From the IMG/VR virus record IMGVR_UViG_3300016466_000860: a stretch of 20,000 nucleotides of DNA. One strand, 5' to 3'. Made by a program: the position numbers and the translations under genes. The stretch comes from an uncultured virus (IMG/VR IMGVR_UViG_3300016466_000860). Taxonomy: Duplodnaviria; Heunggongvirae; Uroviricota; Caudoviricetes. Shown here in pieces: positions 7,014 through 19,522 of this stretch; the first letter of the stretch is position 1; every line of letters begins with the position of its first letter. The notes beneath the pieces are model-generated. The model did no database searches. It saw nothing but the letters and a program-made list of their open reading frames with translations, and had not been told where the DNA came from.

Positions 7014-10000
7014 ATGTCATTTGCAAACGTAGATATCGGAACGATTCCCGGCGATGGTCGCGGAGACCCTCTCCGCTCGGCCTTCAATAAAATAAACCAA
7101 AATTTTGCCAACATTGACGTTGGCAACATAACAGTAAACGTGACCGCGCCGGTGCAGAGCGTGGCCGGACGTACAGGAAACGTCGTGCTCACGGTCAATG
7201 ATATTCCTGGTGCAGCCAGTGAAGGATATGTTGACAGCTCGATAATGGTGTCATTGGGCACAGCCAGGAACTACACTGACTTAAAAGTCAGTACAACTAT
7301 TGCCAGCACCGTGGCCAATTTGGTCTCTTCTGCCCCCGGAACGCTGGACACCCTCAATGAGTTGGCCGCTGCGCTCGGTGATGATGCAAACTTTTCAACC
7401 ACTGTGCTTGATAGGTTGGCCGGCATCGATGCCAATATCTCAACTCTAGCCAATCTTTCCACAGCCAATCTATCTTTGGTCACTGACAATCTATCGGCTA
7501 ATATTGTCAGCGAAACTGCTCGCGCCATTGCAGCCGAATCGGAACTCAGTGCTTTGATTGCCAATGCTGAGTCCAATATATCGTTGACAGAATCAAATCT
7601 CAGTGGTGAAATCGCTGCTGTTGAAAGCTCGTTGATCAATCTCATTTCGAACACCGATTCTAATCTCGCATCAATAAATGCTGACCTATCATCGGCAATA
7701 TCTGATACCAATGCCAACGTTTCTACATTAAACAGCGACTTGGCGACAGAATCCAACGTTCGTGCCATAGCAGATACCACTTTACAAAACAATATTGATG
7801 CAGAATCCAACGTTCGTGCCACAGCAGATACCACTTTACAAAACAACATCGATGGTGTATCATCGTCCTTGACTTCATTGGTTGCCAACGCAGAATCGAA
7901 CATTTCCTCTGTAAGCACATCACTCAGCAACGAAGTCACTCGTGCCACACAGGCTGAATCGGTTTTGGGCAATTTGATCGCCAACGCAGAATCGAACATT
8001 TCGTCGGTGAGTTCTTCGCTGACTTCATTGGTCGCCAACGCAGAATCGAACATTTCGTCGGTGAGTTCTTCGCTGACTTCATTGGTCGCCAACGCAGAAT
8101 CGAACATTTCCTCTGTGAGCACATCACTCGGCAATGAAGTTACTCGTGCCACACAGGCCGAAGCTGACCTCGCCAGCAACATCGCACTCAAGGCCGACAT
8201 CACTTACGTAGATTCAGCTGTGTCAAATCTAGTAGGGGCCGCACCAACTACCCTAGACACATTGAATGAGATCGCAGCAGCCCTGGGCAATGATGCCAAT
8301 CTCAGTGCAACATTGACTTCGTTGATCGGAAACGTAGAATCCAATGTCAGCAGTGTCACAGATGATCTCAGCAACGAAGTCACTCGTGCCACACAAGCCG
8401 AAGCTGACCTCGCCAGCAACATCGCACTCAAGGCCAACACCGCAGATTTGAATACTTCCAATTGGGATGCGGCCTATAGTTGGGGAGATCATGCTCTTGC
8501 TGGATATCTCACTGCTTACACAGAAACCAATGACCTTACCGCTGCGGTAGTCTGGGATACCGTACCCGACGCCTATGTCAGTTCTTCGAGCGTCACACAA
8601 CATCAGGCCAACATCACCATCACCGAAAGTCAAATTTCAGATTTACAAAATTACCTGACTTCGGTGTCTTTTGCTGACATCCAGTCCACGCCCACTACCT
8701 TGGCCGGTTACGGCATCACTGATGCTGTTAGTACTGGCGATTTCACATTCTCCAACAATACTCTAGGCGTCAGCAGCACTGATGGTGGCATCACCATCAA
8801 CGCCAATGGCCTTGGCGAAATAGTCATGAGCGACAATGTTGGTATCCGCAACGACAATCCTGGATACATGTTGCATGTTGGCAAGCAAACAGATATCACA
8901 CAGACCGGTAGCATTGGTATCTCCTACGGTGACATGAACACCCTTGCAGGAGTAGTCACAGATTCTGGAATGACCATGTACCAGATGGGCGGTGAAGTTG
9001 CACTGACCTGGGACTGGAGTGATGGTCAAGGGGCAGGCAGCAACCCCGACAGTAACCATGCACGTTTTGGTATCTTTAAAAATGGGTCACTGAGTGATCC
9101 TTGGCTGACATTCGATCGAGATGCTCCGGCTGATGTGCTGGCAGTTGACAGCCAAGGAAGACTGATCGTCACCAATGGCAGTGGTATCAATACCTCCGCT
9201 GCCGGAACTGCCTACAGTGACACCAACTTCAAGATCTTTGATCCTTGGGGCTCTTTGTTTGTCACTAATCGAAATCTGGAGTCCAACGACTCGGTAACCA
9301 CTAGCATCACCGATGTCTGCCATAGTTTTCATGCCGAGGCCAATGTCACTGAGAATTTAGCACGCACTGATCGTATCCGTGGATTCTCGTCGTCGTTGGA
9401 TATTCTACTGAATGGCTATCAGTGGGATGCCTGGAACAAATTTTCAACTGTGGCCGGGGCAAGTACTTCAGTTAAAGTCATTGGTTCAGGTTCCATTAGT
9501 CAAGTCATTGGCGGAAGCGGGTTCTCTATCATCAATGCCACCGATGGAGCATTGAATGTAGTAGATACTGCCAATGATTCCGATCCCGAGGCCGGAGAAG
9601 ATCCCGGCGTCTCCATTGGTGTCCTGGGCGGTTCTCAACTCATAGTCACTGACACCAGTGGTGTTGCTTCAACTGTTGACATCGCAGCTGGATTATCGGC
9701 TGGTGTGCTGGTTGACAATTCTGCCACCGGGGCTAGTGCTGCCACTATCACTAATGCTGTTGGACTTTATCTACCGTATCGAGCCAGTAATGCGAATTCT
9801 TGGGCTAGAGTCAACGGTACCGGTACCATCACCAATCGTTTCAGCATACACAGCGAAGATCCTGAAGCTGTTCTCAGGAACTACGGAAACATTGAGACCA
9901 ATGGCGCTGTCAAATTCAGCAATGGTCTGATTTCGTTTAAAGTAGTGGGAGTACCAACAACCAGTGTTGGACAAACAGGAGATGTTGCTGGCATGACAGC

Positions 10001-10094
10001 CAACGATGCCAACTACCACTATTATTGCACTGCCGATTTTGATGGCACAACTGATATCTGGAAACGTGTGTCCTGGAGCGCAGACACCTGGTAA
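7014..10094 (+). CDS. tail fiber-like virion protein with coiled-coil shaft
   Basis: N-terminal DIGT..GDGRGDPLRSAFNKINQNF (T4 gp9/gp10-like attachment motif); two AP.TLDTLNE.AAALG.DAN tail-fiber motifs; PTTLAGYGITDA fiber repeat; Ser/Ala/Asn-rich helical repeats. Confidence 0.85.
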   Translation: MSFANVDIGTIPGDGRGDPLRSAFNKINQNFANIDVGNITVNVTAPVQSVAGRTGNVVLTVNDIPGAASEGYVDSSIMVSLGTARNYTDLKVSTTIASTVANLVSSAPGTLDTLNELAAALGDDANFSTTVLDRLAGIDANISTLANLSTANLSLVTDNLSANIVSETARAIAAESELSALIANAESNISLTESNLSGEIAAVESSLINLISNTDSNLASINADLSSAISDTNANVSTLNSDLATESNVRAIADTTLQNNIDAESNVRATADTTLQNNIDGVSSSLTSLVANAESNISSVSTSLSNEVTRATQAESVLGNLIANAESNISSVSSSLTSLVANAESNISSVSSSLTSLVANAESNISSVSTSLGNEVTRATQAEADLASNIALKADITYVDSAVSNLVGAAPTTLDTLNEIAAALGNDANLSATLTSLIGNVESNVSSVTDDLSNEVTRATQAEADLASNIALKANTADLNTSNWDAAYSWGDHALAGYLTAYTETNDLTAAVVWDTVPDAYVSSSSVTQHQANITITESQISDLQNYLTSVSFADIQSTPTTLAGYGITDAVSTGDFTFSNNTLGVSSTDGGITINANGLGEIVMSDNVGIRNDNPGYMLHVGKQTDITQTGSIGISYGDMNTLAGVVTDSGMTMYQMGGEVALTWDWSDGQGAGSNPDSNHARFGIFKNGSLSDPWLTFDRDAPADVLAVDSQGRLIVTNGSGINTSAAGTAYSDTNFKIFDPWGSLFVTNRNLESNDSVTTSITDVCHSFHAEANVTENLARTDRIRGFSSSLDILLNGYQWDAWNKFSTVAGASTSVKVIGSGSISQVIGGSGFSIINATDGALNVVDTANDSDPEAGEDPGVSIGVLGGSQLIVTDTSGVASTVDIAAGLSAGVLVDNSATGASAATITNAVGLYLPYRASNANSWARVNGTGTITNRFSIHSEDPEAVLRNYGNIETNGAVKFSNGLISFKVVGVPTTSVGQTGDVAGMTANDANYHYYCTADFDGTTDIWKRVSWSADTW
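7747..7854 (+). repeat. two tandem, near-identical 54-bp repeats (ESNVRAxADTTLQNNIDx)
   Basis: Units at 7747-7800 and 7801-7854. Confidence 0.92.
7871..8436 (+). repeat. nested intragenic repeats encoding coiled-coil units
   Basis: Exact 54-bp tandem copies at 7981-8034 and 8035-8088; about 7871-7957 recurs at about 8075-8161; about 8135-8196 recurs at about 8375-8436. Confidence 0.9.
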
Positions 10095-10118: not shown

Positions 10119-10973
10119 ATGTCAATAAGAGAAATCAAAAATTTTCCCGTCAATTCGGGAACAGGCATGAGCATCAGAGAAGCCTTTGATGTTGTTAATG
10201 CAAACTTTAACTATCTCGCCATTGAAGCTATACCCGAGCAGGTCTCCGATGCCATTGCAGACCTTTCGGCAAATCTTTCTACCACGTTTACGGGTGGAAA
10301 TATAGCATCAGACACAAGAGTATTGTCTAATACCAACAGTATCAGCAGCAACACCGGTGCGTTAATTGTTGATGGTGGCGCCGGAATAGCTGGAAATGTC
10401 TATGTGGGTGGGTCAGTGACCGCTGATGGAGTTTCAATAACAGGAAATGTTTTAGCATCGGGCATCACAGTACTAGGTAATATTTCAACATATAATATTA
10501 ATGCTACCAATGGATCAATGTCCGTATTATCAATAACTACAGATACTATCACGGTCTCGAACTCGTCGACATTATACAATACTAAAAATAACGGAACTTT
10601 CGAAGTAGTTGGTGATGTTACTATAAGATCAAACGTTTCTATAACTGGAAATGGTGGCATCAATGTTTCTAGTCGACTCAGAGGTAACAATGTAATAGCA
10701 ACTAATACTTTATATGCCACCTCAACCATAGATAGCATAGACACAATAACCGGAGCTCTACAAGTATCTGGAGGTGCTGGAATTGTCGGCAACATCAATG
10801 TTGGCGGAAATTTAATCGTAGCAGGTGTTGCCACAGTGGGAAATTCTTATGTACCGGTTGGCTCAACATCAACAGGCACAGCAGGTCAGATATCCTGGGA
10901 TCAAAATTGGTTCTATATCTGTGTTGGCACAGATCAATGGATAAGATTCGCCAAAGACACCGGAGTGTGGTAA
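10119..10973 (+). CDS. short fiber-like virion structural protein
   Basis: N-terminal G.GMSIREAFDVVNANF and C-terminal AGQISWDQNWFYIC...W.R resemble the termini of the 7014 protein; two TGAL.V.GGAGI.GN..VGG repeats. Confidence 0.8.
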   Translation: MSIREIKNFPVNSGTGMSIREAFDVVNANFNYLAIEAIPEQVSDAIADLSANLSTTFTGGNIASDTRVLSNTNSISSNTGALIVDGGAGIAGNVYVGGSVTADGVSITGNVLASGITVLGNISTYNINATNGSMSVLSITTDTITVSNSSTLYNTKNNGTFEVVGDVTIRSNVSITGNGGINVSSRLRGNNVIATNTLYATSTIDSIDTITGALQVSGGAGIVGNINVGGNLIVAGVATVGNSYVPVGSTSTGTAGQISWDQNWFYICVGTDQWIRFAKDTGVW

Positions 10974-13900
10974 TGTCAAGGCCTCGTTGGATCACTGCCG
11001 CAGGAAATCTAGGTACCATTCCAGAGTTGGTGTTTTACGAACGAGCACTCGAAGTTACCACAGATGCCATTGGCAGCAACAACGTAGATTCCTCGGTAAC
11101 ATATTCTTTCCAGTCCGGAGAGCTTCCTCCTGGTATACAAGTGATCAGGTCCGGCCGACTGCAAGGCGTGCCAGTGGTACTAGAACCCATCACTGTTGAT
11201 GAATCACGGGAGTACAGATTTACCGTCCGTGCTACAACAACCAATAACGTGGTAGTAGATAGAACATTTACACTGACCATAACTAACGTATTTCCTCCTG
11301 TGATTGTTCCTAAAATTAATTTTTTAGGAAACGTCTTCGATGGTTCCTACTACGAAAAACAACTTTTCGCTGTGGAAGAAAATCCCAATGCTCGTTTAAA
11401 GTGGCGAGTATCACAAGGTCAGCTTCCTCCAGGAGTATCGTTGTCTGAACAGGGTTTGTTGTCAGGGTACATTTATCTCGAACCCGACGAGTACAGCAAT
11501 GTGTTAAAAGGCTACGATTCCTACGATGTCGAAGATGCTACTCGTAAAAATTTCTACGACAGAGATCCCTACGACTCGGTTGGAAAATCTCGTAATCGAA
11601 ATTACACATTCACAGTTGAAGTCAGTGATGGAGCCAACACCGATTCTCTCACTTACAATCTAGCTGTAGCTGCCAAGGGCTTGTTCACTGCTGATCAAGA
11701 TCATTTCGTCAACGGCGATATTGAACAGTGGGAAGATGGAGATTACTATCCCCGCGGGACCATAGTGAACTACAACGGCACGCTATATGTGGTCACACAA
11801 AATATCACCGCCACTTTGGCTGCTACACCAGCAAGCGCAACCGCAGGATATCAAATCTACGATTCACAAAAAATATCAATCACTGCCGACAACGATTGGC
11901 TTACAGTGGACCACGATGACAAATATCTACCAGTCATTGTGACCCCACCACAGAGTTTGCCAGTGGTGAGACAAGAAAATAATTTTGCTTTCAAATTTGA
12001 CGCTGTTGATTTCAATGGGTCTACCGATCTCGAATGGTCAATGATATCCAGCGACGGGTCGGGATTTGACAAGGACGGTAGTAGGAATTTTCCTTATTCT
12101 CAAAGGGTATATGTTCCTTTCTCCTCAGACGGAACCATCACGACTGTCACCATCGACATATCCAATTACCCCGAACCCGCTACCTACGATGTGTTTGGGT
12201 TGTTTGAACCCGACGGAGACGATTTAGACCAGGATCCTGACATAGTTGAACTCGAACTCGACAGCGATTATTTCGTCAGCGAAACAGGAACACAGGTATC
12301 TTTTGCTGAGCCATTGGCACAGGGAAAATATTATGTTGGTATTATTATGTCGTTGCCCCAGGATTTTGCAGAAAGTGGCGTGGGATTTGACTCTACAGTG
12401 TTCGACGAAGGTGAGAGTCGTTTGCCGCGAGATCTCAGCATAGACAATAATGGATGGTTGCACGGTTACCTATTACCACAGCAAGAGGAAAAACAGACCT
12501 ATCAATTCAAGGTGATAGTAAAATCTCGTGCCAATGGTATCAATGATGCACAAAAAGAATTTTACCGAGGTATATGGAAACCCAATACACAATACCAGAA
12601 CGACGATGTCATTGAATACAACAACAACTACTATGTGGTATTGACCAATCACACTTCCGAAATCGCTAAACCTCCGGGGCAACTAGATTCAGCTGCTCGG
12701 TATTCTCTTAACCAGATTCTGTATGTCAGCAACACCACTCAATTTGATCTCACAGTGTTGGGAAGCCTCACTGACCGAATCATCTGGAAAACTCCTGAGT
12801 TCTTAGGCAGCATAGTCAACGGCTCAGTGAGTGAACTAAAAATCGAAGCAGTCACTGAGATGGGCCAAGACGTTAGATACAGCCTCGTTCCCAAATCTCG
12901 TAATAGATTGCCGCAGTCACTGAGTTTGGATTTACTCGATGATGGCTTGATAATCGGGCGCACGACTTTTAGATACTTCCAGCTCGACGACGATTCCACT
13001 ACGTTTGACCGCCAACGCACACAATTTGACAATGTCTATACATTTGATGTCAAAGCTGAAACCACAAACATCAAAAAAATGTACTCTGCGGCCAAGAACG
13101 GTGCAGAATACATCGATCTCGCTTATCTAGGAAACTCATTGAAACCGGGGCAACAGATATCCGGACAAGGAATTCCAGTAGGAACCAGGATTGAAGAAGT
13201 CATTAGAACTCCTGTTGACAATCCCGGGGCCACTAGAATCAAATTGACCAGCTTGCTGATTCGTGACATCGAAGCCGGTGAACCGATCTACGTTCTCGAC
13301 GGAGTAGTTTCCTCAACGAAAACATTTAAATTGCGAGTAGACGTAGTACACAGAGAACCCTACGAAAATCTCTACTTCAAAGCCTTCCCAACCCTGCAAC
13401 AAAGACAGGATTTTTTAAGCATCATCAATGATCAAGAAATTTTTCCCAATGAATTGATCTATCGCAGGAGAGATCCCTGGTTTGGCAAGGCCACCACTAT
13501 CAAATTCTTGGCGTTGGCCGGCATCAATGCTTCTAGTCTGCCGGATTACATTGATGCCATGCGCAGAAACCATTATTGGAAACGCATAAACTTTGGTGAG
13601 ATCAAAACAGCAGTTGCCGTGGATGAATTTTACAACGTCAAATACGAGGTAGTCTATGTAGAAGTCATTGATCCCACTAATCTGTCGGGTGCAGCAGTAC
13701 GCGAACAGGTAATTCTCAATGGGGAACCCTACATTGATGAAAATGGCATAGAGCACAATGTGATCTATCCCAGTACATTTTCGAACATGAACCAAAACAT
13801 ATCTAATAACCTGGGATATCGTGCGAGAGGAGTATTCCCGGACTGGATGACATCGGTACAACCGGATAAAAATGTCTTGGGATTCCAGCGAGCAGTAGTA

Positions 13901-15214
13901 TTGGCCTACACCGTGCCTGGTGCCGCCAAGCTAATCGCATATCGACTCAAGAGCAGGAACATAAGATTCGATGACATACAATTCACCATTGACCGATATC
14001 AGCTTGATAATGCATTGAGCAAAAATTACAATACCGAGACAGGTCGTTTCAGTGACAGCAAAGAAACCACATTCGACCGCCTGATCTTGGGCCCAGGGGT
14101 GCTTGATGGCGGAGTAGTAAACTATGCTGTTGAACAACCTTTTGACTCGATCAATAAACGTACTGTGGCCTATATAAGATCGCAGGGTGGTATCGATGGA
14201 GTGAAGAATTTCACTGACGGTGATCTGTTGGTGTTTGCCCAGCAAGAAGATTATTCCATGGAAACCGGCCCCGAAGACGGATGGATCGACTACCAGAATC
14301 TCTATGTCGGAGACATTGTCAATGACGATGACATTGGTGCAGTCACTAATCCTGTAGAATTCCAGGAAATCGATGATGTCTATGGTTACGATTCATATCG
14401 TGTGATTCCCAGCATCAGAAACAAATCATTGACTGTGGAAAAACATCTGCTCCGTACCACAGCCACCGAAGGAAGCACCACTCTACAGTTACCTTACATA
14501 CTGGGATCAAGTTATGTGGGTAAAACAGTATCCGCTATCGGGGTTCCGGCAGATGCAAGAGTCATTTCTGAAGAACTAGTAGACAAAAACGAGGGTGGGC
14601 CGATCGCTGATTTAATCAAAGAAGTCACACTGAGCTCATCATTGACCCAAGACATCAACTCTGGTAGCACTATCACCTTGAGAGCTGCCATGGTCGTTGC
14701 TGCGTCTGATACCAATTTTACCATTGAAGTAGATTCTGTTCCTTCGGGTCCAATAATCGGAATGACACTGACAGGCCGTAATATCCCCAAAGACACCACA
14801 GTTGTTGGAGTTTCAGGCAATTCGTTGACCGTCAATCAGCTGATTACTGTAGAGCTCGGGGAGACCATTGGTTACGAAATACCCAATCAGCGCGGTGGTA
14901 TCTGGCGTGTGAAAATAGATGACAATGACCTAGTCACGTTGGAATTCGTCAGCGAAGTAGAAATTGGACAAAAAATCAAAGTGCAAAGTGGTCAGAGCAA
15001 TGGATTCACTTTCATGGTCTACGATACCAATTTCGCTGGCCCTCGACGCAGTTTACCAGCGTATCGTCGATGGAGTGAACAGATACAGTCCAGCACCGAC
15101 TCAACTGTTTTTGACGGCAACGGAACCAAGTTCTTTGATCGCAGAGATCGTTATCTCGATCCGGAAATCGATGATAAATATCTAAAATTCCCACAGATTG
15201 GAGTATTCACATAA
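10973..15214 (+). CDS. large virion structural protein (baseplate-like) with putative Ig-like and CBM5/12-like modules; start revised to ATG 10973
   Basis: TAATG overlap and SD GGAG; SGELPPG..G.L.G.P..Y.FTV Ig-like (He_PIG-type) repeats; W....Y..G..V.YNG..Y and WKPNTQYQNDDVIEYNNNYY modules; about 1413 aa. Confidence 0.82.
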   Translation: MSRPRWITAAGNLGTIPELVFYERALEVTTDAIGSNNVDSSVTYSFQSGELPPGIQVIRSGRLQGVPVVLEPITVDESREYRFTVRATTTNNVVVDRTFTLTITNVFPPVIVPKINFLGNVFDGSYYEKQLFAVEENPNARLKWRVSQGQLPPGVSLSEQGLLSGYIYLEPDEYSNVLKGYDSYDVEDATRKNFYDRDPYDSVGKSRNRNYTFTVEVSDGANTDSLTYNLAVAAKGLFTADQDHFVNGDIEQWEDGDYYPRGTIVNYNGTLYVVTQNITATLAATPASATAGYQIYDSQKISITADNDWLTVDHDDKYLPVIVTPPQSLPVVRQENNFAFKFDAVDFNGSTDLEWSMISSDGSGFDKDGSRNFPYSQRVYVPFSSDGTITTVTIDISNYPEPATYDVFGLFEPDGDDLDQDPDIVELELDSDYFVSETGTQVSFAEPLAQGKYYVGIIMSLPQDFAESGVGFDSTVFDEGESRLPRDLSIDNNGWLHGYLLPQQEEKQTYQFKVIVKSRANGINDAQKEFYRGIWKPNTQYQNDDVIEYNNNYYVVLTNHTSEIAKPPGQLDSAARYSLNQILYVSNTTQFDLTVLGSLTDRIIWKTPEFLGSIVNGSVSELKIEAVTEMGQDVRYSLVPKSRNRLPQSLSLDLLDDGLIIGRTTFRYFQLDDDSTTFDRQRTQFDNVYTFDVKAETTNIKKMYSAAKNGAEYIDLAYLGNSLKPGQQISGQGIPVGTRIEEVIRTPVDNPGATRIKLTSLLIRDIEAGEPIYVLDGVVSSTKTFKLRVDVVHREPYENLYFKAFPTLQQRQDFLSIINDQEIFPNELIYRRRDPWFGKATTIKFLALAGINASSLPDYIDAMRRNHYWKRINFGEIKTAVAVDEFYNVKYEVVYVEVIDPTNLSGAAVREQVILNGEPYIDENGIEHNVIYPSTFSNMNQNISNNLGYRARGVFPDWMTSVQPDKNVLGFQRAVVLAYTVPGAAKLIAYRLKSRNIRFDDIQFTIDRYQLDNALSKNYNTETGRFSDSKETTFDRLILGPGVLDGGVVNYAVEQPFDSINKRTVAYIRSQGGIDGVKNFTDGDLLVFAQQEDYSMETGPEDGWIDYQNLYVGDIVNDDDIGAVTNPVEFQEIDDVYGYDSYRVIPSIRNKSLTVEKHLLRTTATEGSTTLQLPYILGSSYVGKTVSAIGVPADARVISEELVDKNEGGPIADLIKEVTLSSSLTQDINSGSTITLRAAMVVAASDTNFTIEVDSVPSGPIIGMTLTGRNIPKDTTVVGVSGNSLTVNQLITVELGETIGYEIPNQRGGIWRVKIDDNDLVTLEFVSEVEIGQKIKVQSGQSNGFTFMVYDTNFAGPRRSLPAYRRWSEQIQSSTDSTVFDGNGTKFFDRRDRYLDPEIDDKYLKFPQIGVFT
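15175..15180 (+). promoter_or_regulatory. putative late promoter (TAAATA) inside the end of the upstream gene
   Basis: GATAAATA in the DKY codons, 35 nt before ATG 15216. Confidence 0.45.
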
Positions 15215-15215
15215 A

Positions 15216-16130
15216 ATGGCGTCATCTATAAATCCCTATAATATCAACGGTAACTATCCCGTTGCCGGACAGGACAACGACAGTCAGGGTTTCCGAGACA
15301 ACTTTACAAATACTAGAAACAATCTAGTATTTGCCAAGAGTGAAATCGAAGACCTGCAAAGTAAAGTGCTACTGAAAAGACCTTTGTCGGGTGGTTCCAC
15401 CAGCGATCCGAATTTCAACGAAATGGGCGGAACAAGAATATCTGGGCTCCAGCTCCGTGGTTGGTACGAAACACACGATCGTAAAAATCCAGCAGGCAGC
15501 GCCGTTTCACTGAATTTTAGTACTGCTAACTTTTACAGCATCGTAACTAGCGAATCCGTGACATTGACTCCCACTGGATTTCCTACTGGATCTGCGGCAG
15601 GATGGGGCAAAATAATGCTGTTGATCGAAGTCACTGATGTCGAGCACACAGTGAGCTTCCCCAACGACAAATTGCCGGCTGGCATCGCCAATGTCAAAGG
15701 ATTCAACGGAACCAATGGCATCAACTTTGATGCAGTGGGATCTTACTTTTTTGAAATCGGTTCGCACAATGGCAACGCATTCTACATCATTGACCTATCG
15801 AGGAACTACACAGATTTTTCAACCGAAGACATTGCAACCACCGATGAAGTAAGTCTCTATACTGCAACGACTACATTCGCTACATCAGCAGCCGAAACTG
15901 CCACACTGGCCGACGGTGTGAACGGACAAACAAAAACACTGATCATGACCAGTGACGGTGGAGATATGGTTGTCACAGTCGACAGTGCAGGTTGGAAGGA
16001 AAATTCTGGCTCGCCTGCGGTACCACAGTCGGGAACCATCACGTTTGACTCAGTGGGGCAATCTTGCCAATTGCAATTTGTTGGAACCAAATGGTATTGC
16101 ATTGGCAATAACGGCGCCACATTCGCTTAA
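15216..16130 (+). CDS. virion structural protein; start revised to ATG 15216
   Basis: MASSINPYNINGNYPVAGQDNDSQGFRDNF..AKSEIEDLQSK is an N-terminus typical of jumbo-phage structural proteins; beta-rich C-terminus. Confidence 0.8.
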   Translation: MASSINPYNINGNYPVAGQDNDSQGFRDNFTNTRNNLVFAKSEIEDLQSKVLLKRPLSGGSTSDPNFNEMGGTRISGLQLRGWYETHDRKNPAGSAVSLNFSTANFYSIVTSESVTLTPTGFPTGSAAGWGKIMLLIEVTDVEHTVSFPNDKLPAGIANVKGFNGTNGINFDAVGSYFFEIGSHNGNAFYIIDLSRNYTDFSTEDIATTDEVSLYTATTTFATSAAETATLADGVNGQTKTLIMTSDGGDMVVTVDSAGWKENSGSPAVPQSGTITFDSVGQSCQLQFVGTKWYCIGNNGATFA

Positions 16131-16149
16131 ATCTATTTTAACCAAATTG

Positions 16150-16181
16150 GCACCGGTGCTCTTGACAGACACCGGTGTTTT
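16150..16181 (+). terminator. intrinsic terminator after the structural operon
   Basis: GCACCGGTG-c-TCT-tgac-AGA-CACCGGTGT followed by TTT. Confidence 0.65.
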
Positions 16182-16191
16182 CGTCTAAACT
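16162..16191 (+). promoter_or_regulatory. sigma70-like promoter, leaderless
   Basis: TTGACA (16162-16167), 18-nt spacer, TAAACT (16186-16191); ATG at 16198. Confidence 0.7.
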
Positions 16192-16197
16192 CGTAAC

Positions 16198-16446
16198 ATG
16201 CATCCATTATCTACATCTCTTTCGTCGCTGAACGACGAAGAGCTACAAAAAAAATACGGAGAACTACAACGGCGTTTGATCCAAGCATCTCGATTCGGGC
16301 CGTTTGATCTGGTTCCGCAACTACAAATGTTGTTGGACGATTACCAATTTGAACTGTCAGAACGGCAGCGCCGCCAGATGGAAGCCATGGAAAAACGTGC
16401 CGAAGAATCGGGGCGAGGGTTCAAAGGAATCATTGACATCCAATGA
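16198..16446 (+). CDS. hypothetical helical protein
   Basis: 82-aa ORF coupled to the dnaE fragment by an ATGA overlap. Confidence 0.8.
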   Translation: MHPLSTSLSSLNDEELQKKYGELQRRLIQASRFGPFDLVPQLQMLLDDYQFELSERQRRQMEAMEKRAEESGRGFKGIIDIQ

Positions 16447-16955
16447 AGAGGGATCAATTCGGACAGGTTTCGTTTGACATCAACGAAGTCGCGGAGATGT
16501 TGTATGCCAATCCCGATGTGGATTTTGCCAATCTACAGGTGCAAGATCCCAATCTCTACAATGCCAGCGTGGCACGTTATTTCAATGAACTACCGACATT
16601 GAAAGAGTATCGGCCATTGACAGTGGACATCGAAGAATTCGACCGCATCAACCAATCACAATGGTACATGCCCGAAAAATATCAAACACTAGATATTGCT
16701 GAATGGGTGCTATCTCAATGTCAGACGCAGGAACAATTGCAGAGAGCCGGCAAAGAATTATTGATGTTCCAGGAAAGAAATCTCACAGACCTATTGCGAT
16801 TCCTTAAATATTTCGTCGATACCATGAGAGCCAATGGAGTGGTATGGGGACTGGGCCGAGGTTCCAGCGTTTCTAGTTATGTGTTGTACTTGATAGGCGT
16901 ACACAAGATAGACAGCATGTATTATGATCTAGATGTAGAAGAATTTCTGCGATAA
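16443..16955 (+). CDS. dnaE: stand-alone fragment of DNA polymerase III alpha subunit (split family C polymerase)
   Basis: R...EL..F...VD.MR..GV.WGLGRGSSVSSYVLYLIGVHKID...YDL..EEFL matches the DnaE pattern RL..EL..GPGRGS..GSLVAY.LGIT..DP..Y.L.FERFL; only 170 aa. Confidence 0.85.
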   Translation: MKRDQFGQVSFDINEVAEMLYANPDVDFANLQVQDPNLYNASVARYFNELPTLKEYRPLTVDIEEFDRINQSQWYMPEKYQTLDIAEWVLSQCQTQEQLQRAGKELLMFQERNLTDLLRFLKYFVDTMRANGVVWGLGRGSSVSSYVLYLIGVHKIDSMYYDLDVEEFLR

Positions 16956-16958
16956 ATA
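16953..16958 (+). promoter_or_regulatory. putative late promoter (TAAATA)
   Basis: Overlaps the dnaE-fragment stop; upstream of SD AAGGAG (16982-16987) and ATG 16997. Confidence 0.55.
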
Positions 16959-16996
16959 ATATGCATATATTATATGAACACAAGGAGTGAGCACAA

Positions 16997-17491
16997 ATGA
17001 AAAAAATGTACACTACCGCGATGGGAAGATCCATAGATTTCGAAAGCTTGAAGTCTGCCGGCGAAGAAACCATTGCTGTTGGCAATATGAAAGTGAATGC
17101 ACGCGGAGACCAGCTGGGACCTGGAGGAATAATCGAACGTACTAGAAATGCGGCCATGGCCGACCATTACGGCTCAGGAGTCAGTACCGAAACGCTCGAA
17201 GACAAAATGCTACGGCAAAAAATGGCTGGGGTCAGTTTGAAAAAAAGTAAATCATCAAAAAGATCACAAGATAATACAAGGAACCAGACCATGCCTGAAG
17301 AAAACATCAATAGTCAGTTGCCGGAACAAACACAGATTGATTCCACTGATGATTCTCGCCCTGTTGCGAATCAACCTTTGCCTGACAAACGCCTGAGGGG
17401 AAGCCTAGCATCATCATTGGCCAAAGAATCCACAATCACCCAGGAAAAAATTCCTGATCCACGTAAACCCAAAGGCATCTCAAGGATTTAA
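16997..17491 (+). CDS. conserved hypothetical protein with low-complexity C-terminus
   Basis: Strong SD; Y.TA.G..ID...AVGNMKVNARGDQLGPGGII motif. Confidence 0.85.
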   Translation: MKKMYTTAMGRSIDFESLKSAGEETIAVGNMKVNARGDQLGPGGIIERTRNAAMADHYGSGVSTETLEDKMLRQKMAGVSLKKSKSSKRSQDNTRNQTMPEENINSQLPEQTQIDSTDDSRPVANQPLPDKRLRGSLASSLAKESTITQEKIPDPRKPKGISRI

Positions 17492-17498
17492 AAATACA

Positions 17499-17852
17499 AT
17501 GAGCTACGACCCTATCAAAATTTCTTCTATTAGACCACTCAAAGATCATGTCATCGTAAGAGACATGAACTTCAGTGAGCGTCAATTAAACAGTGGAATC
17601 ATACTTCCGTCCGACAATGGTCGCTCATCGGGAATCAGACCTAGATGGGGGTGTGTTTATGCTGTCGGCCCTGAACAACGAGATATTTCGGTTGGGCAAT
17701 GGATTCTAGTGGCACACGGTCGTTGGACTCGAGGTAGCACCATTGAAATCAACGACGAAAAAATCACCATACGCAGAGTTGACACCAACGACATCCTGAT
17801 AGTCAGCGACGAAGCTCCTGCTGCCGACGAAACCATGAGTGATGCCAATTGA
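17499..17852 (+). CDS. groES: co-chaperonin GroES (Cpn10)
   Basis: IRPLKDHVIV, SGIILP mobile loop, G.VYAVGP, ISVGQWILV and DIL motifs. Confidence 0.9.
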   Translation: MSYDPIKISSIRPLKDHVIVRDMNFSERQLNSGIILPSDNGRSSGIRPRWGCVYAVGPEQRDISVGQWILVAHGRWTRGSTIEINDEKITIRRVDTNDILIVSDEAPAADETMSDAN

Positions 17853-18076
17853 TGCGCCAGCAGGATTCTGATATCGCTTTGGTGAAACGCACAATAAACC
17901 AATTGGTATCGCAAGCCCGTGATCCATATTACACTGGATTTGTGAGCTGTGAATACAAACACGATCTATTAGAATTAAAATGGTACATCGAGGATGCTCT
18001 CGATCAGTGCCCTTCTTTTGGTGAAATAGAAGAAGAATGGCAAAAACAACGAGTACTTCAACTGTTAAAGAAATGA
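17852..18076 (+). CDS. hypothetical protein
   Basis: TGATG overlap with groES; C-terminal P.F..EEEW..Q......LK pattern. Confidence 0.75.
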   Translation: MRQQDSDIALVKRTINQLVSQARDPYYTGFVSCEYKHDLLELKWYIEDALDQCPSFGEIEEEWQKQRVLQLLKK

Positions 18077-18246
18077 GAATCTTGCCTGTTGCAATCATAT
18101 CAGTGGCATGTTATGCTGCTGGTGTGATTCATGGTCGATGGCAGGTGCTGTCTCAATTTGAATCTTATCTCAATCAAATACAACCCAATTTCGAAAAAAA
18201 TGAAAGAACTCTGGACCGAAAAATACCGACCCCGAACTTTATCTGA
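18073..18246 (+). CDS. small putative membrane protein
   Basis: ATGA overlap at 18073; hydrophobic MRILPVAIISVACYAAGVI; overlaps the next gene by 47 nt. Confidence 0.5.
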   Translation: MRILPVAIISVACYAAGVIHGRWQVLSQFESYLNQIQPNFEKNERTLDRKIPTPNFI

Positions 18247-19123
18247 TTATGTGTTCACAGACGCTGCCCAACGGGAGCAGATCGAGTCGTGGGTTCGAGA
18301 AGGATCGATACCTCATATCTTATTGAGTGGAAGTCCTGGCACAGGAAAAACCACATTGGCCAAAGTCTTGATCAATGAGCTGGGTATCCAAGACTATGAT
18401 TTCCTTCAAATCAATGCCAGTCGAGACAACGGTGTTGATTTTATCAAATCAAAAGTGGAAGGATTTGCCAGTACACTGCCGTTTGGTAAATTCAAAGTGG
18501 TACTCATGGACGAAGCCGATTTCTTGAGTCAACCCGCCCAAGGTATCATGCGCGGACTCATGGAAACATATCATGCGCAATGTCGATTTATATTGACCTG
18601 TAATATGCCTCACAAGATCATGCCGGCTTTGCATAGTCGGTGCCAATCTCTCCATATTGACCGCACAGACATCACTGAATTTACCGCTAGAGTGGCCACT
18701 ATATTGGTAGGTGAGAATGTTGAGTTTGATCTCGACACGCTGGATAGCTACGTCAAAGCCACCTATCCAGATCTCCGCAAATGTTTAAATTTGGTACAGG
18801 CCAATTCCATTTCGGGAACATTAAAGACTCCCGGCGAAGGGGATTCTGCAGTCAAAGACTGGAAACTAGATGCTGTCAGCATGTTCAAGGCCGGACAGGT
18901 GCGCGAAGCGAGGCAACTGATCTGCAATCAGGCCAATGTCGATGACATCGACGAGCTATTCCGATGGATGTACAACAATCTTTCTCTATGGAGTTCAACT
19001 CCCGACGGGCAAGACGAAGCTATATTGATCATACGCAAAGGATTAGTCAATCACAGCCAAGTGGCCGATACAGAAATTAACCTGTCTGCTACATTGGTGG
19101 AACTCTCCCAGATCGGAACATAA
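18200..19123 (+). CDS. clamp loader AAA+ ATPase, RFC small subunit/T4 gp44 type; start revised to ATG 18200
   Basis: LWTEKYRP (RFC box II), Walker A GSPGTGKT, INASRDNG, Walker B DEAD, SRC arginine finger, DLRK. Confidence 0.95.
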   Translation: MKELWTEKYRPRTLSDYVFTDAAQREQIESWVREGSIPHILLSGSPGTGKTTLAKVLINELGIQDYDFLQINASRDNGVDFIKSKVEGFASTLPFGKFKVVLMDEADFLSQPAQGIMRGLMETYHAQCRFILTCNMPHKIMPALHSRCQSLHIDRTDITEFTARVATILVGENVEFDLDTLDSYVKATYPDLRKCLNLVQANSISGTLKTPGEGDSAVKDWKLDAVSMFKAGQVREARQLICNQANVDDIDELFRWMYNNLSLWSSTPDGQDEAILIIRKGLVNHSQVADTEINLSATLVELSQIGT

Positions 19124-19522
19124 ATGGCCAGACCCAAAGACATATTTTTGGTAGTGAATTATATCATGCGTCCAAAACCACATGCCCGTACCACACGAGC
19201 CGGTTGGATGAAAGATCCTTCCAATGTACAATACGATGAAAATATCTCTGTGGTAGCCGGACTTAAAAATCGGGATCGCCAGGCAGGAGTCATACTCAAT
19301 CTCACACAGGCGCGAGTTGAGCAAAACTCAATGAGCGGAGAACGCGAATTTGATCGAATGTTCGGATATTTCCTTGAAAACTACAATGAGTACATGACCA
19401 AGGCCATGAGCATCGCTAATCCGGAATTCCTACAAGCATTCATTGATCGCTACTCCACGGACGAAAAAACAGCCACTGAGTCGGAACTAGGCGCACCGCC
19501 ACCGGAGGAATCTGCTCGATGA
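19124..19522 (+). CDS. hypothetical protein
   Basis: 132-aa ORF starting immediately after the clamp loader stop. Confidence 0.8.
   Translation: MARPKDIFLVVNYIMRPKPHARTTRAGWMKDPSNVQYDENISVVAGLKNRDRQAGVILNLTQARVEQNSMSGEREFDRMFGYFLENYNEYMTKAMSIANPEFLQAFIDRYSTDEKTATESELGAPPPEESAR

Follow-up and report, generated by a model that had tools for sequence, protein, structure and literature searches.

Introduction

C-family DNA polymerases are known as large single chains. In cyanobacteria, the alpha subunit of DNA polymerase III (Pol III), DnaE, is encoded by two distant genes, dnaE-n and dnaE-c, whose products carry split-intein pieces and yield a full-size chain via trans-splicing at a site in the fingers. 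The present work deals with a 170-codon open reading frame (ORF) at positions 16443-16955 of a 20,000-nucleotide (nt) stretch of DNA (hereafter the window, which always means this whole stretch) from an uncultured tailed virus (IMG/VR IMGVR_UViG_3300016466_000860). With high confidence, this ORF is the N-terminal unit (N-half) of a split Pol III alpha already published for giant phages. It is likely that the N-half and a C-terminal unit (C-half), encoded far away from it in relatives, reassemble non-covalently as an auxiliary templated polymerase beside a family B replicase.

A "split minimal DNA polymerase III alpha" was described for the group 2.2 (Rak2-like) jumbo phages by Iyer, Anantharaman, Krishnan, Burroughs and Aravind (Iyer et al., 2021, Viruses 13:63; PMC7824862), which is the reference for this enzyme. 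The relevant passages of that article (i) propose that the split alpha is reconstituted and has a role in one strand or in repair; (ii) indicate that it occurs alongside a family B polymerase, without other Pol III domains; and (iii) read the C-half as Mg- and DNA-template-binding. According to the same passages, the full-length DnaE of group 3.2 jumbo phages is, by contrast, a host-like single chain. Genome papers have also touched on the subject: the passages seen of the CBB paper speak of a "truncated" alpha subunit of 172 residues versus ~1120 (PMC5259590) and those of the Atu_ph07 paper note an alpha-subunit gene (PMC6102473), while the searched passages of the PA5oct omics paper contain no statement on either half (PMC7318152).

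Since it was published in 2021, the split minimal alpha is not new as an idea, and the window adds a divergent member to the published family. The initial annotation of the window, made from the sequence alone, had read the ORF as part of a multi-subunit family C polymerase; it thereby arrived independently, and correctly, at the published interpretation, which the relatives support. Beyond the passages of the published papers that were covered, the following points are new: (i) the residue-level mapping of the split; (ii) the constant break points; (iii) the selection figures; (iv) the environmental abundance; and (v) the conserved small neighbors of each half.

The analysis covers the 20,000 nt of the window, and the counts given below for the C-half and for family B polymerase come from relatives of the window phage. 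The IMG/VR sets comprise 80 N-half loci and 83 C-half loci, from which alignments of 58 N-halves and 69 C-halves were made.

The N-Half in the Window

The ORF and its parts are arranged as follows:

16443..16955, + strand: very probable N-half, i.e., the nucleoside triphosphate (NTP)-binding half of split minimal DNA polymerase III alpha, 170 residues (phrog_11127, PF07733)
16443..16631, + strand: residues 1-63 of the N-half, a small alpha/beta extension (secondary structure of the model; predicted local distance difference test, pLDDT, 84-88)
16632..16952, + strand: residues 64-170 of the N-half, the first part of a Pol-beta-like palm, up to the helix preceding the metal-binding strand (structural alignment)
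16854..16868, + strand: GRGSS motif, residues 138-142, the presumed triphosphate-binding "GS" loop (codons, alignment)

The 170-residue protein ends in DVEEFLR, followed by TAA. PF07733 (DNA_pol3_alpha) is the one Pfam family that matches it at E ≤ 1, with protein residues 91-169 aligned to positions 16-94 of the 260-position profile (E 1.4e-10; 41.7 bits against a cut-off of 23.9); neither a PHP domain nor an intein/Hint family is reported at that threshold, in agreement with what had been seen from the sequence alone. The protein also matches phrog_11127 ("DNA polymerase", 171 positions) over its full length (residues 5-170 against 11-171, E 1.9e-44) and, more weakly, positions 360-429 of the 1190 of phrog_405, a full-length polymerase family. 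In a one-sequence search, it is homologous over the region GRGS...ERFL (E 1.7e-9) to full-length phage DnaE, a host-like single chain with a PHP domain (group 3.2 jumbo phages such as phage G; 1156-residue frame in record MT836517.1). When the 58 homologues are used as a profile, positions 124-169 align with residues 347-392 of E. coli Pol III alpha (E 0.025), and the same last 46 positions align with residues 409-454 of Taq alpha, as far as its ERFL (E 0.024-0.025).

The AlphaFold model of the N-half (pLDDT 88.3) extends this likeness beyond the Pfam match. Residues 71-170 superpose on residues 278-393 of E. coli alpha (Z 9.3-10.0; root-mean-square deviation, rmsd, 2.1-2.5 Å over 94-97 residues), and residues 64-170 on residues 303-413 of M. 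tuberculosis DnaE1 (Z 12.0). All 14 entries listed in the structural alignment are C-family polymerases (Z 7.1-12.0), and such polymerases take ranks 1-15 of the entries listed by Foldseek (E 0.03-2.4). Foldseek by itself gives neither half a match at E ≤ 0.001 and, in consequence, the identity of both halves rests on C-family polymerases standing in its top ranks together with the structural re-alignment (VIA). As regards bacterial DnaE and PolC (2HNH/5FKV, 2HPI/3E0D, 5LEW, 3F2B), the palm start and the GS loop superpose with an rmsd of 2.1-2.9 Å over 92-103 residues. Residues 1-63 matched neither DnaE nor other chains in the structure searches, in which the aligned ranges start at residue 62-79; the suggestion of an unrelated N-terminus thus held for these 63 residues and failed for residues 64-170, which are DnaE-like by structure.

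The end point of the protein is precise. In the full-length DnaE of the phage collection, the chain reads ERFL-NPERVSMP-DFDIDF: it continues exactly where the N-half ends, with DFDIDF 9 residues further on. The N-half stops 4-8 residues short of the metal-binding aspartates, all three of which lie outside its chain, and the cut falls in the loop that joins the helix after the GS loop to the first metal-binding strand. These positions (profile 16-94 of 260; E. coli alpha 278-393) bear out the first description of the ORF as a 170-residue DnaE-like piece with a GRGS motif which stops, at EEFLR, just before the catalytic motif and where bacterial DnaE goes on. The residues G136 and G138-R139-G140-S141-S142 are invariant in all 58 N-halves, and GRGSS aligns with the GPGRGS of Taq and E. 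coli alpha, a loop which, from the Pol III alpha structure papers, we take to be the triphosphate binder.

A tblastn search with the N-half returned 94 phage records, 86 of them with at least 80% coverage and all below 60% identity; apart from one unrelated full-length DnaE record, those shown are jumbo myoviruses of the Rak2/121Q/GAP32/CBB/PA5oct/Atu_ph07/XaC1 kind. At the nucleotide level, megablast of positions 15000-19200 against phages found no match. The N-half is like the other members of phrog_11127 (121Q gp56, CBB_328, Atu_ph07 gp316, XaC1_411, PA5oct gp196) in length, PF07733 sub-range, end point, GRGSS loop and gene order, but it is just 33-47% identical to the cultured members, and therefore the window comes from an uncultured lineage. 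Identity reaches at most 61% with IMG/VR contigs and 86% with a single metagenome contig (L184), the closest relative, which at 7.9 kb is too short to hold the C-half. N-halves occur in at least 115 stretches of IMG/VR and in 291 of metagenome contigs.

The C-Half in Relatives

The initial annotation had predicted that a complementary, separate fragment would exist, and relatives do contain one: an ORF of ~190-210 residues that opens with DIDIDF. Each of the four complete cultured relatives has one PF07733 match per genome, always to positions 16-98 of the profile; the C-half ORFs were reached through a weak DNA_pol3_finger signal, below threshold, which three of these genomes give (E 0.004-0.008). 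As read in 121Q, XaC1 and Atu_ph07, the C-half is a separate ORF of 191-212 residues with DIDIDF within a few residues of the initial Met; in PA5oct, it was located by tblastn at 143944-144498. The 121Q copy lies at 13282-13917. Its motifs are DIDIDF, K-x-D-(F/L/I)-L, I-R-P-(G/A)-K-R and F-K-K-x-H-x-x-x-Y, and its K-L-D-F-L strand aligns with the KIDFLGL strand of full-length DnaE. The residues D6, D8, D10, D71, R140, P141, K143, R144, K170, H173 and Y177 are invariant in the 69 aligned C-halves.

The C-half corresponds to phrog_11778 and also touches phrog_405 at positions 772-809 of 1190, collinear with the 360-429 of the N-half. With filters off, its profile is collinear with full-length DnaE at HAAGV...LKIDFLGL and at YAFNKSHAAAYA (17.1 bits, E 2e-7, one-sequence search). 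The structural evidence points the same way: the C-half model (pLDDT 90.5) aligns over 187-189 of its 193 residues, and this with C-family polymerases only, namely PolC 968-1295 (Z 10.0), Taq alpha 459-837 (Z 9.5), M. tuberculosis DnaE1 416-807 (Z 9.3) and E. coli alpha 398-780 (Z 7.0); among other folds, the best reaches Z 3.1 (VIA).

Both halves occur together. Among phage records, 96 have a C-half and 94 an N-half, with nearly equal counts by genus. One C-half was found in eight of ten IMG/VR contigs with an N-half, including the six that are at least 90% complete; adding the four cultured relatives to these six, all ten complete or near-complete genomes carry one C-half beside their N-half. 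The distance between the two genes amounts to tens of kb or more (~31 kb in 121Q, ~183 kb in Atu_ph07). C-halves occur in at least 578 stretches of IMG/VR.

The C-half gene has a small neighbor of its own. A phrog_11637 protein of ~120 residues is encoded convergently with it and overlaps its 3' end in 121Q, XaC1 and Atu_ph07 and in 73 of the 83 IMG/VR C-half loci (L100-L182); examples lie at L017:1365-1730(-), L018:553-918(+) and L019:1308-1661(-). With a conserved W-W-W-x-x-N-R stretch and a basic tail, it is the second small neighbor tightly linked to the split polymerase, next to the 82-residue ORF described below.

The Break Between the Halves

Across the 80 IMG/VR loci, the N-half is 157-193 residues long and ends at one alignment column (x-F-[LMF]-[KR]-stop) in 78 of them, the other two being longer by 1 and 5 residues. 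The C-half opens with DIDIDF a few residues after the start codon in 82 of 83 loci, mostly as M-K-F-x-S-DIDIDF, and the remaining locus is cut at the match. Only 2 residues follow FL in the N-half and ~5 precede DIDIDF in the C-half; hence, there is no room for intein halves at the break. In E. coli numbering, the N-half corresponds to alpha 278-393 and the C-half to alpha 398-780 so that, judging from the models, the two appear to be adjacent pieces of one fold.

Purifying selection acts on both halves. Between the window and L184 (86% identical, with the stop codon at the same position), the rate of nonsynonymous substitution (dN) of the N-half is 0.082 and that of synonymous substitution (dS) 1.35, i.e., a dN/dS of 0.06, with no sign of relaxed selection; this is the usable comparison for the window, as every pair with an IMG/VR locus is saturated at synonymous sites. 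Within IMG/VR, the median dN/dS is 0.33 for the N-half (19 unsaturated pairs of 1653) and 0.094 for the C-half (175 usable pairs of 2346).

Compared with DnaE, and according to motif spacing, the following has been removed: (i) ~77 residues between DxD and HxxGV, in the thumb region; (ii) ~88 residues between RPx and KSH; and (iii) everything beyond the KSH helix. The split core lacks the PHP, thumb, outer-finger, clamp-binding, OB and tau-binding parts, and searches of the whole genomes of the four cultured relatives found PHP (PF02811) in none and HHH_6 in none. Like DnaE, the pair formed by the N-half and the C-half of relatives keeps the three-aspartate site and the inner-finger motifs; unlike DnaE, it consists of ~170 + 190 residues instead of ~1160, one third of the size, and is cut between alpha 393 and 398. 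It also differs from bacterial replicative DnaE in not being the main replicase of the phage, given that a family B polymerase is present in relatives. With the intein-split DnaE of cyanobacteria, it shares the location of its halves (in relatives) in two distant genes, but the cut lies in the palm and there is no intein sequence at the break, and the phage halves must stay non-covalent.

Family B polymerase (PF00136) was found in all nine relatives searched (4/4 cultured, 5/5 near-complete IMG/VR genomes). It is one frame of 1010 residues in 121Q and XaC1. In Atu_ph07 (578 + 418 residues, 212336-213688) and PA5oct (825 + 379 residues, 217618-221395), the matches fall in two open frames, for which reason the main replicase may also be split in some members. 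A DnaQ-like 3'-5' exonuclease (PF00929) is encoded by a frame of 262-294 residues in all four cultured relatives. The closest complete IMG/VR genome (G001, 0/1) gave no match to it; hence, it is no constant companion of the split alpha and was rejected as an obligatory partner.

Proposed Mechanism

Neither half has a complete active site, and both keep residues that form the active site of DnaE. In Pol III alpha, contacts with the incoming deoxynucleoside triphosphate (dNTP) and the template are made by the GS loop and by the RPG and KSH motifs of the fingers; the metal ligands of the E. coli enzyme are D401, D403 and D555. The N-half and C-half polypeptides would associate non-covalently and, once assembled, would rebuild one Pol-beta-like palm and inner-finger active site in a core of ~360 residues. 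Such a core could act as an auxiliary templated DNA polymerase beside the T4-type family B replicase, filling gaps, taking part in repair or synthesizing part of one strand. Its processivity would probably be low, as is to be expected in the absence of thumb, clamp-binding and OB parts; an auxiliary role is the most economical reading because family B polymerase is present in 9/9 relatives. On balance, we favor an N-half/C-half pair that is active as a templated polymerase, although less firmly than the split itself.

Several observations weigh against this interpretation. To begin with, the sequence of the C-half is barely DnaE-like, and its assignment leans in consequence on predicted structure and short motifs: neither its profile nor a single sequence matched DnaE in a sequence search of the PDB, its PF17657 match (E 0.017-0.045) stays under the cut-off, and at E ≤ 1 a PF07733 match exists for just 2 of 69 members. 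Secondly, two IMG/VR contigs with an N-half (80% and 30% complete) gave no C-half match, tblastn of three C-halves against the 20-kb window gave none either (best E 0.23), and the presumed presence of a C-half in the window phage rests on relatives at 46-61% identity. Thirdly, templated synthesis is not assured for a core without thumb, clamp-binding and OB parts. Finally, the remark of the initial annotation that biochemical characterization is scarce proved apt, as no biochemical or structural study was found in the full-text literature, with subscription journals outside this coverage.

At ~360 residues, this split core is the smallest natural version of a class otherwise known as large single chains; it is kept by a whole giant-phage clade and is abundant in environmental viromes. 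Should it be active, it would show which parts C-family catalysis needs at a minimum. It also bears on the origin of the bacterial replicase, and one may ask why phages whose T4-type replisome is complete need a second polymerase.

Alternative Explanations

The first possibility to be considered is compatible with the split polymerase and concerns the small ORF that precedes the N-half:

16198..16446, + strand: 82-residue ORF, "up82" (phrog_15348-like, helical; ATGA overlap with the N-half)

It is possible, although doubtful, that up82 is a third small subunit that binds the N-half or the N-C pair. As the first reading of the locus had it, up82 is coupled to the N-half; the two share an ATGA stop/start overlap, and an overlap with the N-half start is found in 41 of 80 loci. 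A hidden Markov model (HMM) places a homologue in the 3 kb upstream of the N-half in each of the 80 IMG/VR loci; the HMM also matches in 121Q, XaC1, PA5oct and Atu_ph07, where the homologue adjoins the N-half or is one gene away. Between the window and L184, up82 is 94% identical (the N-half, 86%), with a dN/dS of 0.033, which indicates strong constraint. It is a real gene and a conserved, constrained neighbor of the N-half, and it matches phrog_15348 (E 3.1e-5). The protein is helical, and the 58 sequences of its family have a near-invariant M-x-H-P-L start and I-D-I-x end, and these conserved ends might be docking motifs.

Other data speak against a subunit role. By blastp, the 80 loci include, apart from the 41 overlaps, 6 with up82 close by, 21 with it at 500-1100 nt upstream and 12 in which it is missed; something intervenes between the N-half and those 21 farther homologues, as it does in PA5oct and Atu_ph07. 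Across the clade, column identity is 30% and the median dN/dS reaches 0.64 over 99 noisy pairs. No known family was found for up82 in Pfam, and ESM Atlas gives only viral hypothetical clusters (score 0.91). Its adjacency is weak evidence by itself because the conserved block also holds head-morphogenesis genes. A complex prediction with three proteins of one IMG/VR genome, namely the two halves and, as the scored partner, the homologue of up82, gave 0.01 against a mark of 0.32 in a run without controls, a result that counts neither for nor against binding.

A broader form of the same idea, an enzyme of more than two parts in which up82, and perhaps the 164-residue protein encoded downstream of the N-half or the phrog_11637 protein, would replace the thumb or clamp-binding parts, is an unlikely one. 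If true, it would mean a modular C-family polymerase of several subunits, of a kind not seen in cells, and a working model for a Pol III alpha built from small pieces.

Turning to what the reassembled pair would do, the main alternative is that the halves form an active Pol-beta-fold nucleotidyltransferase which does not copy a template; instead, its task during infection or counter-defense could be to add untemplated tails, to modify the ends of DNA or RNA, or to synthesize a product derived from nucleotides. We regard it as fairly improbable. The loss of the thumb (~77 residues), of the ~88 residues between RPx and KSH and of the part beyond KSH would fit such an enzyme, and so would the failure of the searches to find a clamp-binding, HHH_6 or OB part, the full family B replicase that these phages already have, and a weak Foldseek tail of the C-half that includes Cid1-type terminal uridylyltransferases (E 0.36-2, probability 0.02-0.06). 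Nevertheless, the invariant R140-P141, K143-R144, H173 and Y177, together with F169-K170, align with the YRPGP and FNKSHAAAY of DnaE, that is to say, with those finger motifs that in Pol III alpha reach the incoming dNTP and the template. The near full-length alignment of the C-half with the C-family only, far above the next fold, also speaks for a template-copying enzyme, and Iyer et al. likewise see this half, in the relevant passages, as binding Mg and a DNA template (PMC7824862).

Concerning the N-half alone, it might be a non-catalytic decoy or adaptor that mimics the surface of the host Pol III alpha, in keeping with its lack of all three metal-binding aspartates, its private 63-residue N-terminal domain and its position among late and structural genes and not among polymerase genes. 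This is very improbable: the N-half goes one-to-one with a C-half in the 10/10 complete or near-complete genomes, it keeps an invariant GRGSS nucleotide-binding loop that a mere mimic would not need, and the cut runs through one fold, separating the palm helices from their sheet.

Lastly, although an earlier genome paper spoke, in the passage seen, of truncation (CBB, 172 versus ~1120 residues; PMC5259590), a remnant, be it a decaying dnaE, an artefact of assembly or frameshift, or a gene split by an intein, can be dismissed for practical purposes, since the stop is the same in 78/80 loci of many samples, 86/94 cultured-phage records match over nearly the full length, and the fixed break points, the dN/dS of ~0.06, the missing intein/Hint family and the lack of room for intein halves rule out decay, which had been doubted from the outset, as well as assembly artefact and intein trans-splicing.

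Gene Neighborhood and Flanking Signals

The split polymerase thus remains the preferred reading of the N-half, whose surroundings in the window contain these further features:

16162..16191, + strand: sigma-70-like promoter match TTGACA-18-TAAACT, 7 nt upstream of the 82-residue ORF (10/12 consensus)
16951..16958, + strand: late-promoter-like GATAAATA, 7/8 to the T4-type TATAAATA, overlapping the N-half stop codon
16997..17491, + strand: 164-residue downstream neighbor, phrog_14844 (PHROGs; context)
17499..17852, + strand: GroES/Cpn10-like co-chaperonin of T4 gp31-type head morphogenesis (PF00166, E 2.2e-8; phrog_931; context)
18131..19123, + strand: T4 gp44-like clamp-loader AAA+ subunit, which marks a T4-type replisome (phrog_168, E 2.8e-80; context)

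The order small ORF, N-half, ORF of 115-164 residues, GroES-like gene and clamp loader is the same in 121Q and XaC1, and PA5oct and Atu_ph07 share it but for one inserted gene. With its T4-type clamp loader and its conserved neighbors, the N-half thus stands in the gene context of a group 2.2 jumbo phage. A homologue of the 164-residue protein lies directly downstream of the N-half in 80/80 IMG/VR loci and 4/4 cultured relatives, and is always followed by the GroES-like gene, itself found 3' of the N-half in 80/80 loci; this protein has ~57 conserved N-terminal residues and a low-complexity tail. The gp44-like clamp loader is present within 3 kb downstream of the N-half in 68/80 loci.

As regards the signal after the N-half, the T4-type late-promoter consensus is TATAAATA. 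Between the N-half and the 164-residue gene, where the initial annotation had placed a clean late promoter, 14 of 58 distinct relatives have the exact consensus, and 26 of 58 have ATAAATA; the site is less clean than claimed in the window, where only a 7/8 match occurs, with ATAAATA at 16952, and where the exact consensus has 0 occurrences in 20 kb. The 27 nt of spacer after the N-half are identical in L184. Owing to the late-promoter match and the conserved spacer, the 164-residue gene and those downstream look like a separate, late, head-morphogenesis unit, and GATAAATA is likely to be the start of a separate late transcription unit.

Other neighbors in the window, according to Pfam and PHROGs, are tail-fibre-like and further virion genes, a tRNA-methyltransferase-like gene and a metallophosphoesterase. 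A protein of 1026 residues (7014-10094) has tail-fibre PHROG matches only in its first ~560 residues (best phrog_1197, E 7.7e-24). A frame of 1435 residues (10907-15214) is without a PHROG match at E ≤ 0.001; its translation probably begins downstream of the TTG listed as the start. This frame is followed by an ORF of 310 residues with no Pfam or PHROG match, homologues of which lie upstream of the N-half in 63/80 relatives. Both the 1435-residue frame and the 310-residue ORF probably encode large virion proteins.

Upstream of up82, the sigma-70-like match TTGACA-18-TAAACT is not significant by itself, because 5 promoter-like sites occur in the scanned region against 3.2 ± 2.0 expected. A terminator scan between the 310-residue ORF and up82, in which loops of 3-8 nt were allowed and an 11-nt loop was thus excluded, listed none. 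The same interval contains the self-complementary octamer CACCGGTG twice (16151-16158 and 16170-16177), followed by TTTTCGTC. The two copies could pair into a terminator hairpin around a loop of 11 nt, and the TTGACA of the promoter-like site lies inside the loop of that candidate hairpin.

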